From: Acidobacteriota bacterium
GTDB taxonomy: Bacteria; Acidobacteriota; Blastocatellia; Pyrinomonadales; Pyrinomonadaceae
DNA: 64,000 bases
Assembly (NCBI GenBank): GCA_032159235.1
Contig: JAVHWW010000075.1
Coordinates: 3,717-67,716, forward strand
Direction of reading: 5' to 3'
Positions 29,862 to 55,719 of this stretch are shown piece by piece (the first letter of the stretch is position 1; each line of letters begins with the position of its first letter). Both the position numbers and the translations under genes were made by a program. The notes beneath the pieces are model-generated. The model saw only the letters and a list, made by a program, of their open reading frames with translations, was not told the origin of the DNA and did not search any database.

Positions 29862-30003
29862 AAGCAGAATTCAGGAGTCAGAATCCAGAATCCAGAAGAA
29901 AAGAAAAACCGAAGCGCGGAAGAACGGAAAAGCAGAATCTGTCAAAGTGGTTCTCCGCCTTTTCATTCTGGCTTCTGAATTCTGGATTCTGACTCCTGCT
30001 TTT
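29861..30003 (+). repeat. Family E palindromic element (7-nt units CAGAATC/CAGGAGT) with conserved core
   Basis: Left arm 29861-29898. Core of about 65 nt including AGAATCTGTCAAAGTGG...CCGCCTTTTCATTCTG. Right arm 29964-30003. Confidence 0.9.
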
Positions 30004-33888: not shown

Positions 33889-34242
33889 TTATTTCTTTTC
33901 CCGCCCGCCTTTTTTATCTTCCTGAGAGATGCCCGCAGCTTCCTCGACTGCCGGGATCACTTCTTCGACAGCGCTCTTGACCGCTCCTGAGACTGCCGCC
34001 GAGAGGACTTTACCCGCAACCTTCTTCAACTTCCTGCTCACTGAAGGCTGGCTTCTCCGGGCGCTCTTCTTGCCGCCCTTTTTACCTGCTGCACCGGACG
34101 CCTTCTGAGCGCCGCGCTTGTTGGAAGGCTTGCCCGAAGATTTTTTCGCGCCGCCTTTGGCAGACGATCCCTTCTTCGACGATTTCGCTCCACCGCCGGA
34201 AGAGGTCTTCGCTGATTTCTTGCTCCCCTTTTTAGTTGCCAT
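33889..34242 (-). CDS. Lys/Ala/Gly/Ser-rich basic protein (histone H1/Hc1-like composition)
   Basis: Starts MATKKGSKKSAKTSSGGGAKSSKKGSSAKGGAKKSSGK. AGGAG lies 9 nt upstream of ATG 34242. The longer ORF start (34344) is rejected. Confidence 0.5.
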   Translation of the reverse strand: MATKKGSKKSAKTSSGGGAKSSKKGSSAKGGAKKSSGKPSNKRGAQKASGAAGKKGGKKSARRSQPSVSRKLKKVAGKVLSAAVSGAVKSAVEEVIPAVEEAAGISQEDKKGGREKK

Positions 34243-34389
34243 GTTTTCCATCTCCTTGTAATTTTTGTGCCGACCGTTGAACAGACAAGCTACCACAAGC
34301 AGGTAGAAAGGCGAAGGGAGAAAGTGAGGACACACCCAAGGCATGATTTATAAAAAGAGCATGGCACAGCTTGGTCCGCATCCTTCCGG

Positions 34390-34414
34390 CTTCTGACTCT
34401 TGACTTCTGGATTC
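34390..34414. repeat. Solo family E arm
   Basis: CTTCTGACTCTTGACTTCTGGATTC resembles a family E right arm, with no partner arm within 600 nt. Confidence 0.5.
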
Positions 34415-34649
34415 CGCTTCCTCTCGTCCATTCCTGATTGCCGAATTAGCCGGTTTGAGCTAAATTACGTGCAACAAAAAACGAAACTTTTATACGTCCG
34501 CGTTTTTCAGCCCTTGTGGTGGAGAGGATAGTCCGATGCAAACAGCCTTTTCCGTTCCTTTGTCTGGTGACCATCTCGAAGCTCGATACTTGGGATTATC
34601 TTCAAGTCATTTCTCGCCGGGCGGCAAAGATCAAGCGGACGCTGATGCG

Positions 34650-35051
34650 ATGGTGTTGATGAGTGAGCCTGCGAAGAGGCCGGGCAGGCCGCGCGCACTG
34701 GTCGTTGACGACGCGCCAGACGTGACCGAGATGCTCGCCATGTTTCTTGAGCACGCGGGCTATGAAACGGTCATGGCCTTCTCCGCCATCGAAGCTCTCG
34801 AAGTGGCGCAACAGGATAAATTTGAAATCATCGTCTCCGACATCGGAATGCCGGGCATGAACGGCTACGATCTGGCTGTCGCGCTGCGCGCCCTGCCGGA
34901 ATACACGGACGTGCCGATGATCGCCGTCACAGGCTTCTCAATGTACGACGACCGGGGCCGCGCGCTTCAATCCGGCTTCAACGCCCACCTGACTAAACCC
35001 ATCAGTCCGATGACGCTCCTCGACCTGATTAAGAAATTGAGAGAGGGATGA
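34650..35051 (+). CDS. Single-domain response regulator (CheY-like receiver)
   Basis: VVDDAPD, IIVSDIGMPGMNG, AVTGF and LTKP correspond to the DD, phospho-Asp, T and K positions. ATG 34650 is chosen over the upstream ORF start 34536. Confidence 0.8.
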   Translation: MVLMSEPAKRPGRPRALVVDDAPDVTEMLAMFLEHAGYETVMAFSAIEALEVAQQDKFEIIVSDIGMPGMNGYDLAVALRALPEYTDVPMIAVTGFSMYDDRGRALQSGFNAHLTKPISPMTLLDLIKKLREG

Positions 35052-35055
35052 AGAA

Positions 35056-35159
35056 CAGAAGTCAGGAGTCAGAATCCAGAATCCAGAATACTAAGGCGGA
35101 AACCGCGTCCACAGATTTTGTTTTTATTCTGACTCCTGACTTCTGGATTCTGAATGCTG
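35056..35159 (-). repeat. Family E palindromic element (core in minus orientation)
   Basis: Left arm 35056-35090, right arm 35125-35159. The reverse complement of the loop, AAAACAAAATCTGTGGACGCGGTTTCCGCCTTAGTATTC, aligns with the cores at 54196-54230 and 55656-55696. Confidence 0.9.
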
Positions 35160-35168
35160 CTTTAACAA

Positions 35169-37340
35169 ATGCCTGATACTAGCGAGGAAACGGTAGATAA
35201 CGTCGAGGTCGAGCAAGCGAAGGAGCAGGCAGGGTTCTTCGGGAAGGAGACGACTTACTACGCCGCGCTCCTGCTCATCGGCGCAGTCGTCATCGGACTC
35301 ATCTTCCGCAAGTTGCAATACGCTACGCAGTCCGTCTGCTGCGGCGACTTCGACGGCTACTATCACATCAAGTGGAGTCGTCTGCTCTGGGAAGGAATGA
35401 AGCAGGGACATTTCCCGCCGACCTTCAAGTGGCTGCCACTCACGACGCTCAATCCGCAGGCTTACGCAGATCATCATCTCTTCTTCCACTTCCTACAGAT
35501 TCCGTTCACATGGTTCAGCGACCTGCGCGCGGGCGCGAAAGCCGCCTCGTGGCTTTACGCCACGCTCGCAGTTCTTTCGTGCTACTGGTTAATCCTGCGC
35601 TATCGCATTCGCCACACGCTCATCTGGTTAATCGCACTGCTGGCCTGCTCCGCGCCGTTTCTCTATCGGATGAACATGGCGAAAGCGCCGCCCGTCGCCA
35701 TCATCTTTATGGTCATCGGCATCTATCTGCTCTTTGAAGAGAGATACTTGCTGCTGCTGCCCCTCGCCTTTCTGTTCGCCTGGACTTACAGCCTGTTCGT
35801 CACACTCGTTGGAGCTGCTTTCATCTGGTCGTGCGTGGTGAGTTGGAGCGAGCGGCGTCTTGAGTGGCGACCTTGCGTCTGGGCATTTATTGGAGCGGCG
35901 GCGGGCTTAGTAATCAATCCATATTTTCCGAAGAACGTCTGGCTCCTGGTCGAGCACATTCTGATTAAAGCGACGGTCACGGGCTTCACAACAGAAGTCG
36001 GACAGGAATGGTCTCCTTATGATAGCTGGTTTCTTTTGGGAAGTTGCCTCATCGCTTTCGTTGCCATGATCGTTGGCTATGCGGCTTATGACTCGTCGGA
36101 TAAAAAACGCGCTGCACGCCCGCTCTTCTTCCTCTTCTTTTCGACGGCCTTGATGATTATCAGTTTTCGCTCGCGGCGCTGGGTCGAATACTGGCCGCCG
36201 TTCGCTGTGCTGTTCGCGGCCTTCAGTCTCAAACCGCTTCTCGAAGGCGCGCGTGCCGCTATCGGTCGCTTGCCGAGCGAGGTGCTGGATGAATTGCAAC
36301 CTTTCTTAGACCGAAATGAACCGCCCGGTGCGGTTGAAAGCGAGCGCCGCAGAGACTTCTGGAAAGAGATCGAGATGGCCGCCATCGGCATCGCGCTCGG
36401 TCTCGCGGGCTACTTCGTCTTGAAGCAGATTTTCTACCGACCGCCCAATCATTCGGTCGTCTATGTGCTACTCGAACCTAAAGTCTTCGTTGTCATCGCC
36501 GTCTTCCTGATCGGTTTTGCAGCTTACGTTTTCTGGCGTCGTAGTCTGACCAAAGCCTTCGCTGCCTTGCTCGTCTTCGCTCTCGTCGTCATCTTGAATT
36601 TCAACCTGCACGAGACGCGCAAGGACATCGCGGGCGACGCCAAGCCGGAACATTACGAGGCTTCGATGGCCTGGATACGCGACAACGTGCCGCCCGGAGA
36701 AACCATCTTCAATACGGACTGGGACGATTTCCCGAAGATGTTTTTCTACGACACCAATCACGTTTACATCTCCGGCCTCGACCCGACTTACCTGCTCGAC
36801 AGAGACAATCAACTCAAGCGCGATCCGAGTCTGGCCGAACTCTTCAAGAAGATTACGCTCGGCCAGGATGTGACAATCAACGGTGAGAAGAAAGAATACG
36901 CGCCGCTCATCCGTGAAAAATTCGGCGCGCGCTACGTCTTCACCGATACCGAACAGGTTCACGACAACTTCTACGGCAACGCGATGGACAGTGGCTGGTT
37001 CGACGAAATACACATCTACACCTTCGAGCGCCAGGACGGTCGCCCGCTCACCGCAAAAGACCTCGACACGCTCAAGCAGACCGCGCCGCCTGAGCTTAGT
37101 GAGTCTCACAATTGGATTCTGATAACCGAAGGCCGCCGCGTCGTCTCCGGCACAACCAAAGATTTCACCTGCGCGGACATCAACGGCATCTGCGATCATT
37201 ACGTCGTCAACAAAGACTTCGATTCCAGAGTGCTACGCATCCGCGACCAGAAAGGCCAGCCGCCACCGGAATCCAAAGACGACACCGGCGATGAGGGCGA
37301 CGAGGGTGATACCGGCGGTGATGATGAGCCGGGAAATTAA
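35169..37340 (+). CDS. Large polytopic membrane protein, GT-C-fold glycosyltransferase-like (possible STT3/PglB/AglB-type)
   Basis: About 13 TM plus a soluble C-domain. GDFDGYYH in the first loop (residues 59-66), TTEVGQE at about 274-280, AWIRDNVPPGETIFNTDWDDF at about 501-521. Acidic C-tail. Confidence 0.6.
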   Translation: MPDTSEETVDNVEVEQAKEQAGFFGKETTYYAALLLIGAVVIGLIFRKLQYATQSVCCGDFDGYYHIKWSRLLWEGMKQGHFPPTFKWLPLTTLNPQAYADHHLFFHFLQIPFTWFSDLRAGAKAASWLYATLAVLSCYWLILRYRIRHTLIWLIALLACSAPFLYRMNMAKAPPVAIIFMVIGIYLLFEERYLLLLPLAFLFAWTYSLFVTLVGAAFIWSCVVSWSERRLEWRPCVWAFIGAAAGLVINPYFPKNVWLLVEHILIKATVTGFTTEVGQEWSPYDSWFLLGSCLIAFVAMIVGYAAYDSSDKKRAARPLFFLFFSTALMIISFRSRRWVEYWPPFAVLFAAFSLKPLLEGARAAIGRLPSEVLDELQPFLDRNEPPGAVESERRRDFWKEIEMAAIGIALGLAGYFVLKQIFYRPPNHSVVYVLLEPKVFVVIAVFLIGFAAYVFWRRSLTKAFAALLVFALVVILNFNLHETRKDIAGDAKPEHYEASMAWIRDNVPPGETIFNTDWDDFPKMFFYDTNHVYISGLDPTYLLDRDNQLKRDPSLAELFKKITLGQDVTINGEKKEYAPLIREKFGARYVFTDTEQVHDNFYGNAMDSGWFDEIHIYTFERQDGRPLTAKDLDTLKQTAPPELSESHNWILITEGRRVVSGTTKDFTCADINGICDHYVVNKDFDSRVLRIRDQKGQPPPESKDDTGDEGDEGDTGGDDEPGN

Positions 37341-37364: not shown

Positions 37365-37550
37365 ATGAAATGTCCGAACTGTGGGAAGCCCGCCGAATGG
37401 CAAGATAATCCGCACCGCCCTTTCTGTTCCGAACGCTGCAAGCTGATAGACTTTGGTCGCTGGGCTAACGAAGAATATCGCGTGCCTGCTGAGCCTGCGC
37501 CAATTACTGAGAACAAAGAAGAGGATGTCGAAGCAGAAGATAGTAACTAA
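37365..37550 (+). CDS. yacG: DNA gyrase inhibitor YacG (zinc-binding)
   Basis: CPNCGK...[20 protein letters not shown] is the YacG signature. 61 aa. Confidence 0.8.
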
Positions 37551-37611
37551 AGCGCCGCACCTCTTTGAACAGCTTACTGTCAGATTGCTTCGTTTTAATG
37601 AACGAGAAGAG

Positions 37612-38223
37612 ATGTTTCAAATAATATCCATCAGAAGATTTTTTGTTACTTCCTTTTGCGCGGCTGTATTGCTCATACAATCTTCTTGTATTAAAGACTC
37701 TCCACGAGTAAACAATTCCAATGTCGTGTCAACGGTAAACAATTCTAACGCTGTGGAAGCCACACAACATCAGGGACCACAGCCGCCCTTTCATTCTTAT
37801 CAGGTAAAAATTTCCGGCCCTGTCACTTTAGACGAAACATGGATCGAGCTCCATCCTGAAACATATCTGAAAGCTGATAATGATCTTCAGGAAGTTGGGT
37901 TAGAGTTAGAGCAGCCTTTCAATGATGATTTCTTTAGCAAGGGCAAAGGTCCAAATAAAGGGAAAGGCATTCTGATGCCCGATGGAGATGTGATAAATCC
38001 TGAGATAGAAGTCGTAGATCAAGATGGGAACGTGTTCGACCTAGTTTATGGCGGAGGGCATATACCGGGTAATGGAAAGGGAGGCACAATAATTTATAAT
38101 CCGCCCTACCCGCAAGAGTTCCCAAGAGATAGAGAGTACAAGACGGTGAGAATCAGATCACCAAGACCCATTAAATGCAAAGCAGTTTATTGGGTCTCCG
38201 AGTCGGTAAAAGATTGGCCGTAA
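37612..38223 (+). CDS. Hypothetical lipoprotein
   Basis: MFQIISIRRFFVTSFCAAVLLIQSSC is a signal peptide plus lipobox. AT-richer. ATG 37612 is chosen because the longer ORF (37453) overlaps yacG. Confidence 0.5.
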   Translation: MFQIISIRRFFVTSFCAAVLLIQSSCIKDSPRVNNSNVVSTVNNSNAVEATQHQGPQPPFHSYQVKISGPVTLDETWIELHPETYLKADNDLQEVGLELEQPFNDDFFSKGKGPNKGKGILMPDGDVINPEIEVVDQDGNVFDLVYGGGHIPGNGKGGTIIYNPPYPQEFPRDREYKTVRIRSPRPIKCKAVYWVSESVKDWP

Positions 38224-54156: not shown

Positions 54157-54271
54157 AAAGCAGGAGTCAGAATTCAGGAGTCAGGAGCCAGAAGAAAAGA
54201 AAATCAATAAAAGCGGGTTGCCGCCTGATCCATTCTGGATTCTGAATTCTGACTCCTGAATTCTGCCTTTC
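54157..54271 (+). repeat. Family E palindromic element (core in plus orientation)
   Basis: Left arm 54157-54195, core GAAAAGAAAATCAATAAAAGCGGGTTGCCGCCTGATC, right arm 54231-54271. Fills the gap between 54155 and 54273. Confidence 0.9.
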
Positions 54272-55620: not shown

Positions 55621-55719
55621 CCAGAATTCAGAAGCCAGAAGTCAGAAGCCAGAAGAAAAGAAGAACAAAATCTGTCGAAGCGGGTTGCTGCCTTAGCATT
55701 CTGAATTCTGGATTCTGCC
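55621..55719 (+). repeat. Family E palindromic element (core in plus orientation)
   Basis: Left arm 55621-55655, core AAAAGAAGAACAAAATCTGTCGAAGCGGGTTGCTGCCTTAG, right arm 55697-55719. Confidence 0.85.

Follow-up and report, generated by a model that had tools for sequence, protein, structure and literature searches.

The question raised by this locus is whether a long membrane-protein gene of a soil acidobacterium encodes an oligosaccharyltransferase (OST), which was the tentative call of an initial annotation made from the sequence. [quoted passage not shown] The gene in question, P0001, occupies 35169..37340 (+) of the window, by which we mean the whole 64,000-nt stretch that was analyzed, and it was followed through its open reading frame, its homologs, an AlphaFold model and a fold search.

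The gene, its family and its neighborhood

The reading frame of P0001 (35169-37340, +) is free of internal stops and specifies 723 aa, and the gene is real: it has thousands of homologs, the closest at E = 0 and with identities of 54-98% among the 120 matches listed. All four strings quoted in the initial annotation are present where it placed them, among them GDFDGYYH at residues 59-66 (nt 35343-35366), TTEVGQE at residues 274-280, and AWIRDNVPPGETIFNTDWDDFPKMFFYDTN at residues 501-530. Its estimate of about 13 transmembrane (TM) helices followed by a soluble C-terminal domain also agrees with hydropathy and with the AlphaFold model (pLDDT 83, pTM 0.85), which give 13 helices and then an alpha/beta domain. 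Searched with the single P0001 sequence, Pfam, NCBIfam and the PDB returned no match. The family to which the gene belongs has neither a Pfam nor an NCBIfam model and no studied member; it is large, comprising ~2,400 clusters at 50% identity. Each of the 10 genomes sampled from this bacterial family, Pyrinomonadaceae going by the record names, carries a member, in single copy, so that within this sample it is strongly conserved; elsewhere its occurrence is patchy. A search for related loci with 18 sequences returned, as its best 80, only records of Pyrinomonadaceae and other Acidobacteriota, and a cluster look-up with ten distant members, one of them from Sumerlaeaceae, turned up almost no names. 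Two homologs bear the JGI automatic name "asparagine N-glycosylation enzyme membrane subunit Stt3". Another JGI name, "intracellular septation protein A", on one distant cluster is at odds with a GT-C fold and was taken as a misannotation.

Conservation was judged on 80 diverse members at 25-55% identity. From these, and from the model of a 484-aa core member, the typical protein has ~500 aa and 11 TM helices. Of the 13 helices in P0001, 2 belong to a clade-specific insertion (~residues 412-470; 36402..36578, +) that is missing from many Pyrinomonadaceae homologs and present in about 3 of the 80 diverse members; the family profile jumps over window positions 36417-36530, and the confidence of the P0001 model is reduced there. 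The PglB-like count of 13 helices therefore does not survive as a family feature. A second clade-specific element, found in the closest homologs only, is a C-terminal extension (37014..37340, +) made up of a ~75-aa Cys-containing insert and then an acidic tail, for which pLDDT is low (block means ~44-86, with minima near residues 641-670 and 701-723).

Directly upstream lies P0382 (34536..35051, +), a receiver-only response regulator (Pfam Response_reg, 2.9e-23) in whose sequence the receiver residues DD, D, T and K can be read. An ortholog is the next gene upstream, in the same orientation, in 61 of the 74 related loci that offer sufficient flank, and lies no more than 3.5 kb away in a further 7; more distant members have no regulator of this type in their flanks, and the link is limited to the close clade. 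The 117-nt gap between the 2 genes is filled by a perfect 20-nt inverted repeat with a 50-nt spacer (35056..35145, without strand), which belongs to a dispersed family of palindromic repeats; its arm has 11 matches in the window against 0.01 expected. Lipid-linked-oligosaccharide (LLO) assembly genes, which the initial annotation had named as something to look for, were found neither at the window locus nor in 20 distant loci. Among those 20 loci no recurring neighbor pointed to donor or acceptor either, save in one acidobacterial lineage (4 genomes), where the family member is directly preceded by the gene of a GtrB/DPM1-type GT2 that carries two TM helices at its C-terminus. No such partner stands beside the window gene, the best counterpart in its own genome having 28% identity, and most loci have no GtrA-type flippase or GT2 nearby.

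Fold and profile comparisons

With regard to structure, the initial annotation had proposed superposition on PglB and AglB, with a better match to a non-OST GT-C family counting against it. The best PDB matches found by Foldseek are all OST catalytic subunits: STT3, AglB and PglB chains fill the top 13 places for P0001 (E 7e-8) and the top 17 for the 484-aa core member (best E 4e-10), whose own model is of high quality (pLDDT 95.5, pTM 0.94). Over the query, TM-scores are 0.69-0.74 for the STT3 chains and 0.59-0.66 for AglB and PglB. DPY19, ALG12, ArnT and ALG9 rank after the OST subunits in both searches, and the order of OST above ArnT and DPY19 reflects Foldseek E-values 2-4 orders of magnitude apart, with no qualitative gap: ArnT is matched at E 1e-6 to 4e-6, and DPY19 (7ZLI) matches the core model at E 8e-7 with a TM-score of 0.67. 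PMT structures match poorly (E 0.03-0.08), and AftA is among the GT-C(A) matches. The features of GT-C(A) enzymes are in place, namely a polytopic N-in topology and a long external loop 1 (EL1) that bears a conserved Asp and a pair of juxtamembrane helices.

Profile searches gave a more divided picture. PF02516 and PF22627 (AglB_core) find nothing in P0001 even at E up to 10, and nothing in its genome or in the 80 members, yet the same STT3 models do match canonical STT3 of other Acidobacteriota. PF13231 and PF02366 likewise match neither P0001 nor any of the 80, and the source genome has 9 separate PMT_2 genes. The family profile, on the other hand, has AglB (3WAJ/5GMY) as its only significant PDB match, at E 8.8e-8 over TM6-TM13, with no other membrane protein; diverse homologs were needed for this, since a profile of close homologs only had no PDB match.

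Profile-profile alignment with hhalign places the family at a probability of 96% (E 5.8e-9) against five canonical acidobacterial STT3 proteins, in its middle part, and at 96% (E 1.4e-9) against twelve PMT_2 proteins, over residues 38-248 only. By sequence, then, it appears to be about as near to PMT_2 in its N-terminal half as to canonical STT3 in its middle part. Taken separately, the N-terminal half (TM1-TM7, with the D62 loop) scores E 2.4e-7 against PMT_2 and 2e-5 against STT3, whereas segment 236-366, with the E280 loop and R337, scores 2.1e-5 against STT3 and 0.17 against PMT_2. In the hhalign alignments STT3 has extra helices ahead of the loop equivalent to that of E280.

Conserved residues and the C-terminal domain

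Seven residues, D62, H66, H103, H107, R167, E280 and R337, are kept in nearly all of the 80 diverse members. H66, R167 and E280, together with G536, are invariant (80/80), and D62, H107, R337 and F521 occur in at least 78. The 2 acidic residues that the initial annotation would have made catalytic are retained, D62 in 79 members and E280 in all 80, so that neither of the two computational outcomes which it had named as counting against it was observed.

D62 belongs to the EL1 motif G59-D-F-D62-G-Y-Y-H66 (35343..35366, +), where the first juxtamembrane helix begins, and is the putative catalytic Asp. The motif had been read as an acidic "DxD", of which only the second half stands, D60 being kept in just 27 of 80. 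By hhalign, D62 is matched to the Asp in the "DE" motif of PMT_2, and a colinear alignment of low confidence sets it on the EL1 Asp of canonical STT3; an Asp in EL1 is common to all GT-C(A) families and so cannot tell one from another. The second juxtamembrane helix of this loop (residues 104-115 in the model) carries D101-H-H103-L-F-F-H107 (35469..35489, +), with D101 in 70, H103 in 75 and H107 in 79 of 80, a candidate cluster of metal or phosphate ligands. An off-register pairing of these residues (101-107) with the EL2 D-H-H of STT3 was rejected at an hhalign probability of 1.3%.

At the periplasmic end of TM3, in F-L-Y-R167-M-N-M-A-K172 (35658..35684, +), the Arg is invariant, residue 172 is basic (R or K) in 79 of 80, and there is no DxD. 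With hhalign, R167 is paired with the Arg in the "N/G-R-T/S" stretch of STT3. Where canonical acidobacterial STT3 reads R-T/S-x-x-G-[FY]-x-D-[TH]-[DH], however, the family has R167 followed by M-x-M-x-R-A-Q/P, and neither the 80 members nor the hhalign comparison with canonical STT3 yields a conserved acidic residue after R167 as a counterpart of the EL2 DxD/DxH.

The long periplasmic loop after TM7 resembles the catalytic loop EL5 and runs from N250-P-Y-F-P-K-N through a juxtamembrane helix to V-G-Q-E280-W (35916..36011, +), with W281 and P251 in 78 and F253 in 77 of 80. HMMER aligns the Glu of the family "vGnEW" (E280) on the Glu of AglB "TI-AE"; the hhalign match to bacterial STT3 takes in this loop as well, with an offset of 4-5 residues. 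The motif reads V-G-x-E-W, and the loop follows TM7, not TM9. Further on, S-R-R337-W-V-E340-Y (36171..36191, +), at the periplasmic end of TM9/TM10, has R337 in 78 and E340 in 74 of 80; its Arg matches that of the STT3/AglB "N/L-R-F", and the stretch aligns to AglB "qNRFAYY" and bacterial STT3 "ggLRFtvY" in the confident part of both alignments.

The periplasmic alpha/beta C-terminal domain (residues 490-615; 36636..37013, +) contains W502-I-R-D-N-V-P, D517-W-D-D-F521 and G536-L-D-P, and its strand-helix pattern is seen in both AlphaFold models. The WWD(YG) motif of STT3 binds the +2 Ser/Thr of the sequon. WWD has been called strictly conserved in STT3 proteins (PMC10859629), but in this family it is replaced by [D/N/S]-W-D-D-F, the first Trp being lost and "YG" becoming "DF": position 517 is D in 49 of 80 (otherwise mostly N, S or E), W518 is kept in 72, D519 in 60, D520 in 65 and F521 in 79. 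D517-W-D-D comes to lie on W-W-D-Y only in a no-confidence part of a colinear greedy hhalign alignment. The other conserved columns of the domain bring the list to W, D, D, F, L, Y, G, L, D, P, G (G536 in 80 and D538 in 76 of 80), among which, judged from conservation and not from superposition, neither a Lys nor an M-x-x-I stands out as a DK/MI motif. A profile of the C-terminal domain alone found no OST domain. Its PDB hits, a GH18 chitinase-like "W..D.DDF" (E 0.3) and a PH domain (E 0.24), were set aside as chance-level noise. The W-[LI]-x-x-N-T-P stretch, offered in the initial annotation as an OST sign, is present but not specific to OSTs, because it is also found in PMT_2-type and other acidobacterial GT-C proteins.

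Function and comparison with known systems

The reading that we prefer is that P0001 is probably an outward-facing glycosyltransferase of GT-C(A) fold, from a large unannotated family, and a remote, reduced relative of STT3/AglB/PglB. That it might be no enzyme at all, and instead a polytopic transporter, a scaffold or the sensor partner of the upstream response regulator, with a GT-C likeness due to a general helical bundle, we regard as very improbable. The lack of a curated family match and a signaling gene as the sole conserved neighbor would suit such a protein, but the regulator neighbor is limited to one clade, the invariant residues are charged and by the alignments lie in periplasmic loops at GT-C catalytic-residue positions, and fold matches at E < 1e-3 reach at least 6 GT-C enzyme families, the matches to transporters and GPCRs all having E > 0.1 and TM-scores of ~0.1. 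A true N-OST, that is, a minimal bacterial STT3 transferring a lipid-pyrophosphate glycan en bloc to periplasmic Asn through xWDDF as an altered WWDYG pocket, is unlikely. It would account for the OST subunits at the top of both structural searches, for AglB as sole PDB profile match (an alignment that pairs E280 with the TIxE Glu, R337 with the conserved Arg and WLxxNTP with WMRENTP), for the colinear pairing of D517-W-D-D with W-W-D-Y, and for the Stt3 name on two homologs. Against this stand the altered WWD, a pairing that lies in the no-confidence part of its alignment, the missing EL2 DxD, the absence of conserved DK/MI residues, a C-terminal-domain profile without an OST match, a core of 11 TM helices rather than 13, unlinked LLO assembly genes, and PF02516 and PF22627, silent here though they match canonical STT3 of the same phylum. 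On balance, P0001 probably does not function as an N-oligosaccharyltransferase; what holds of the original call is a divergent STT3-like GT-C enzyme, on the strength of the fold and of D62/E280, and what is less likely than not is the OST assignment, in view of WWD, EL2 DxD, PF02516 and the C-terminal domain.

A stronger contender, with a likelihood somewhat short of even, is a modifier of the ArnT/Gtr type, which would take one sugar from undecaprenyl-phosphate-sugar and attach it to lipid A, LPS core, O-antigen or exopolysaccharide, the STT3 likeness being confined to the level of the fold. This is the commonest sub-case of the preferred explanation and is treated separately because the acceptor is named. 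The N-terminal half, nearer to PMT_2/ArnT than to STT3, the ArnT-sized C-terminal domain of ~120 aa and the strong ArnT fold match are all in line with it, as are the GtrB-type GT2 partner in one lineage and a gene that usually stands alone, as expected of a decoration enzyme using shared donors. It has to contend with PF13231 and PF02366 matching 0 of 80 members, with an E280 loop and R337 segment that fit STT3 and not PMT_2, with the poor PMT fold matches, and with most loci having no GtrA-type flippase or GT2 nearby. A different reading, to which we attach only a small probability, is a minimal 11-helix, STT3-derived protein-glycosylating enzyme whose rebuilt xWDDF/GLDP pocket would read a target other than N-x-S/T and which in Pyrinomonadaceae would be switched by the CheY-like receiver as its dedicated regulator; bacteria would then have a type of protein glycosylation not recognized before.

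To return to the glycosyltransferase that we prefer, its gene, family, fold, conserved residues and neighbor are matters of observation, and from them we infer catalytic roles, donor, acceptor and regulation as follows. A polyprenyl-phosphate-linked sugar would sit in a membrane-embedded cavity, where R167, R337 and K124, all of them basic and invariant, would grip its phosphate(s), while H66, H103 and H107 perhaps bind a metal that helps to hold the phosphate. D62 in EL1 and E280 in the mobile long loop after TM7 would activate the acceptor nucleophile, and the small periplasmic C-terminal domain, with xWDDF and GLDP, may place the acceptor. For the donor, a polyprenyl-monophosphate monosaccharide has about an even chance, and the GT2 in one acidobacterial lineage is a hint; a pyrophosphate-linked oligosaccharide is possible but less likely. 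The acceptor could as readily be an envelope glycan or lipid as something else, a protein side chain is plausible at slightly under even probability, and within the latter the canonical Asn of N-x-S/T is a doubtful candidate. The pairing of the gene with a CheY-like receiver in the close Pyrinomonadaceae clade suggests phosphorelay control there.

What the locus offers is a GT-C glycosyltransferase of an undescribed STT3-like family and not a demonstrated N-OST. The family keeps an Asp/Glu/Arg core, swaps the sequon-reading motif and cuts the scaffold to 11 helices. If it is protein-directed, its donor and acceptor could represent a new bacterial protein-glycosylation chemistry of glycoengineering interest; alternatively, it would show how an OST scaffold was adapted to envelope-glycan decoration in abundant soil bacteria; and if it is an ordinary glycan-decorating enzyme, the gain is chiefly in annotation.

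Among known systems, DPY19 C-mannosyltransferase (GT98; 7ZLI) offers a parallel in having an STT3-like fold and no WWD motif, and this eukaryotic family uses a polyprenyl-monophosphate monosaccharide as donor; P0001 has no sequence match to the Pfam Dpy19 model. ArnT/PMT_2 (GT83/GT39; PF13231, PF02366) shares the N-terminal seven-helix module (E 1.4e-9, D62 falling on the "DE" Asp), a periplasmic C-terminal domain of small size and, in one lineage of the family, an ArnC/GtrB-like GT2 partner, but it has no counterpart of the E280/R337 middle segment and is outranked by OST in both fold searches. From STT3/AglB/PglB (GT66; PF02516, PF22627) the family departs in a C-terminal domain of ~120 rather than at least 250 aa, in xWDDF for WWDYG with no EL2 DxD/DxH and no DK/MI motif seen, and in a core of 11 rather than 13 TM helices with an N-terminal half nearer to PMT_2 and no linked LLO cluster. 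Nonetheless, it is these enzymes, exemplified by A. fulgidus AglB-L (3WAJ, 5GMY, 7E9S), yeast and human STT3 and C. lari PglB, that are its best fold matches and that share with it the EL1 Asp, probably the invariant Glu of the long mobile loop, the Arg in the following helix pair, and a periplasmic C-terminal domain that opens with W-L-x-x-N-T-P and continues with a beta strand and then an aromatic/acidic motif.

The gene product and its modelled fold

The ORF at 35169-37340 (+) runs uninterrupted for 723 codons, and its translation places the motifs quoted in the initial annotation at the residues claimed for them: GDFDGYYH at 59-66, TTEVGQE at 274-280 and AWIRDNVPPGETIFNTDWDDFPKMFFYDTN at 501-530. 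Overlapping ORFs on the opposite strand are unsupported; homologs of the + strand product number in the thousands. The predicted architecture of about 13 membrane helices followed by a soluble C-terminal domain also held up, with 13 helices counted both by hydropathy and in an AlphaFold model (pLDDT 83, pTM 0.85; input alignment of 80 homologs) that orients the protein N-in, C-out and begins an alpha/beta domain at about residue 490. At 723 aa the protein is longer than is usual for its family (470-560 aa). The excess comes from a two-helix insertion at about residues 412-470, missing in many Pyrinomonadaceae homologs and in about 77 of 80 diverse members, and, toward the C-terminus, from an insert of about 75 aa and an acidic tail. 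That insert carries a Cys-x6-Cys (D-F-T-C-x-D-I-N-G-x-C, about 37150-37200), and a Cys-Cys pair, C57-C58 (35337-35342), lies just N-terminal of the putative catalytic Asp motif in this protein and in only 8 of the 80 diverse members; these clade-specific periplasmic cysteines are possible disulfides. A 484-aa core member was modelled separately, with 11 membrane helices (pLDDT 95.5, pTM 0.94).

In fold searches of the PDB, the 13 best matches to the window protein were AglB and yeast or human STT3 (E 7e-8 to 3.5e-6), followed by ArnT (4e-6), ALG12, PglB and ALG9. The 17 best matches to the core member were oligosaccharyltransferase (OST) subunits only (STT3 at 4e-10, with TM-scores of 0.69-0.74 over the query; AglB at 1e-7; PglB at 4e-7), ahead of DPY19 (8e-7), ALG12, ArnT (1.2e-6), ALG9 and AftA. 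PMT was a poor match to the core member (0.08), and transporters and receptors all had E above 0.1 and TM-scores near 0.1. As modelled, the fold is GT-C(A), and in both searches OSTs are the closest structures solved.

Sequence relationships and conserved residues

A single-sequence search with the window protein returned no match in Pfam (E up to 10), NCBIfam or PDB sequences. The PF02516 (STT3) check proposed in the initial annotation came back empty for the protein, for the 80 diverse members and for its own 4.4-Mb genome (87% complete), while archaeal control genomes matched. The PMT and PMT_2 models matched 0 of the 80 members. By profile-profile comparison, hhalign aligned the family to twelve PMT_2 proteins with a probability of 96.4% (E 1.4e-9, residues 38-248), as against 95.9% (E 5.8e-9, residues 128-360) for five canonical acidobacterial STT3 proteins bearing WWD[YNKQ]G or WWNNG. 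By region, the N-terminal module is closer to PMT_2 (E 2.4e-7) than to STT3 (2e-5), the segment that includes the E280 loop and R337 is matched by STT3 (E 2.1e-5) but not by PMT_2 (0.17), and the C-terminal domain matches neither (STT3 E 0.27; PMT_2 0.019, limited to the W-L-x-x-N-T-P stretch). The profile of the 80 members, searched against the PDB, found A. fulgidus AglB-L (3WAJ, 5GMY) at E 8.8e-8 and no other membrane protein; the alignment spans AglB residues 274-518 and pairs 'vGnEW' with 'TI-AE', 'sRRfvEy' with 'qNRFAYY' and 'WLkentp' with 'WMRENTP'. A profile of the C-terminal domain only found no OST in the PDB. A greedy colinear alignment to STT3 sets R167 on the Arg of 'N-R-T' within the confidently aligned core; it also sets D62 on the EL1 Asp and DWDD on WWDY, both in stretches without alignment confidence.

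Across the 80 members (25-55% identity to the window protein), H66, R167, E280 and G536 are invariant. Kept in at least 70 of 80 are D62, H107 and F521 (79/80 each), R337 and W281 (78/80), D538 (76/80), H103 (75/80), E340 (74/80), K124 (73/80), W518 (72/80) and D101 (70/80); D520 (65/80), D519 (60/80) and D517 (49/80) are kept less often. The acidic motif claimed for the first external loop is present and conserved at D62, but not as a DxD: only 27 of 80 members keep D60, and the family therefore has one conserved loop-1 Asp. External loop 1 with its two juxtamembrane helices, the outer ends of TM3 and TM9/10, the long loop after TM7 and the C-terminal domain contain the conserved residues, all of which would face the periplasm in the model topology.

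Weak matches to the family profile occur in other Acidobacteriota, and eight that were examined comprised two canonical STT3/AglB_core proteins (carrying WWDQG or WWNNG), two PMT/PMT_2 proteins and four unassigned GT-C-like proteins. The phylum does have canonical STT3/AglB proteins of archaeal type, 690-770 aa long, as at five loci (L098, L099, L100 (= L093), L102 and L103 (= L090)), each with WWDYG, WWDNG, WWNNG, WWDKG or WWDQG; L090 and L093 match PF02516 and AglB_core, and L100 and L103 have EL2 D-H-H. The window's own genome yielded none. Of the 201 genomes sampled, 27 have a PF02516 match over the cut-off, though many of these matches lack WWD. Another acidobacterium encodes a 654-aa GT-C-like protein (L089:1799-3763 (+)) with a further variant, 'EWLRANVPADENVVCDWSHGYEIQ', at the WWDYG position and a weak Dpy19 match (E 0.006) as its sole Pfam match. 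Three GT-C-like proteins of 590-620 aa (L087, L088, L091), with first-loop motifs HDTGFH, DPDTFWH or HDDLFFH, matched no Pfam glycosyltransferase model and may be another unannotated family; two have weak sub-threshold TPR matches near the C-terminus.

Distribution and gene neighborhood

An exhaustive search gave 2,370 family representatives at 50% identity at E <= 1e-3, and 461 at E <= 1e-30. Strong profile matches occur in about 32 of 201 sampled Acidobacteriota genomes, including 10 of 10 from the window's own family, and the gene is single-copy in its own genome. Beyond Acidobacteriota the distribution looks patchy, since one Sumerlaeaceae genome has a member and 0 of 40 others sampled from that phylum do. 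Automatic names in public collections disagree: two homologs (P0048/P0371) are named 'asparagine N-glycosylation enzyme membrane subunit Stt3'; the P0140 cluster is named 'intracellular septation protein A', a mismatch with the GT-C fold and probably wrong; the remaining homologs are all 'hypothetical protein'. The window's own genome also has nine separate PMT_2-type GT-C matches (contigs C81, C31, C22, C74, C67, C111 and others), and relatives have 6-24; for periplasmic glycosyltransferases this set is unusually large.

No glycan-assembly genes adjoin 35169-37340. Downstream are an ORF without assigned function, a thioredoxin-like protein and a GH15 hydrolase; immediately upstream is a receiver-only response regulator (34536-35051) with the canonical DD, D, T and K residues. 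This regulator is the only conserved neighbor. Of 74 related loci whose flanks are long enough, 61 have it as the next gene upstream, on the same strand, and 7 others have it within 3.5 kb. All are close relatives; no receiver gene lies within 3 kb at 20 more distant acidobacterial loci or at two loci of other lineages. The ORFs flanking the pair, 37453-38223 (+) and 33889-34344 (-), have no Pfam match, and the former is not conserved beside homologs of the glycosyltransferase. The 117-nt gap before the glycosyltransferase gene is occupied by an inverted repeat with perfect 20-nt arms (35056-35145), which belongs to a dispersed palindromic family located between genes, among other places on both sides of the regulator gene. 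Related copies lie at 29865-29984, 34390-34409, 54168-54265 and 55629-55655, and units like CAGAAGTCAGGAGTCAGAAT have 11 matches in the window versus 0.01 expected.

The distant loci share no neighbor family save a GT2 in one acidobacterial lineage, directly upstream of the family member in four genomes of two genera of one family (L143, L145, L146, L147). This GT2 is 317-324 aa long, has two membrane helices at its C-terminus and the GtrB/DPM1/ArnC architecture, and is the sole donor-related neighbor found; at L145 its ORF overlaps that of the family member by 4 nt. The adjacency counts as a single evolutionary event and does no more than hint at the use of polyprenyl-monophosphate sugars by family members; the window's own genome has no close homolog of this GT2. 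In a Blastocatellia-class genome (L156:2995-6903 (-)), a family member of 517 aa lies 19 nt after a membrane protein of 778 aa that matches nothing in Pfam and may be a lineage-specific partner.

Proposed activity and relation to STT3

The window protein is very probably a GT-C glycosyltransferase. Solved GT-C(A) enzymes suggest, by analogy, that the donor would be a sugar linked to polyprenyl phosphate, which R167, R337 and K124 would hold, possibly together with a metal at H66, H103 and H107; D62 and E280 would act on the acceptor nucleophile, which the C-terminal domain would present. For the donor, a monophosphate monosaccharide has about an even chance, and a pyrophosphate glycan is a somewhat less likely alternative. 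A glycan or lipid acceptor is similarly in the balance, a protein acceptor is plausible at somewhat less than even, and canonical N-glycosylation is improbable.

The initial proposal of a divergent OST is partly supported, by fold and remote homology but not by the motif and curated-model tests. According to a review (PMC10859629), STT3 proteins strictly conserve the WWD motif, which binds the +2 Ser/Thr; in the family the motif reads [D/N/S]-W-D-D-F. The EL2 D-x-D/D-H-H of canonical acidobacterial STT3 proteins has no counterpart after R167, the family has no conserved DK/MI-like Lys or M-x-x-I, curated STT3 family models do not match it, and the window protein reaches 13 helices by a different insertion from that of STT3. 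For these reasons the protein is not filed as an STT3-family member. It is a GT-C(A) superfamily member of an undescribed family, which is a variant, at the level of the family, of a known kind of enzyme and has the OSTs as its nearest relatives of solved structure.
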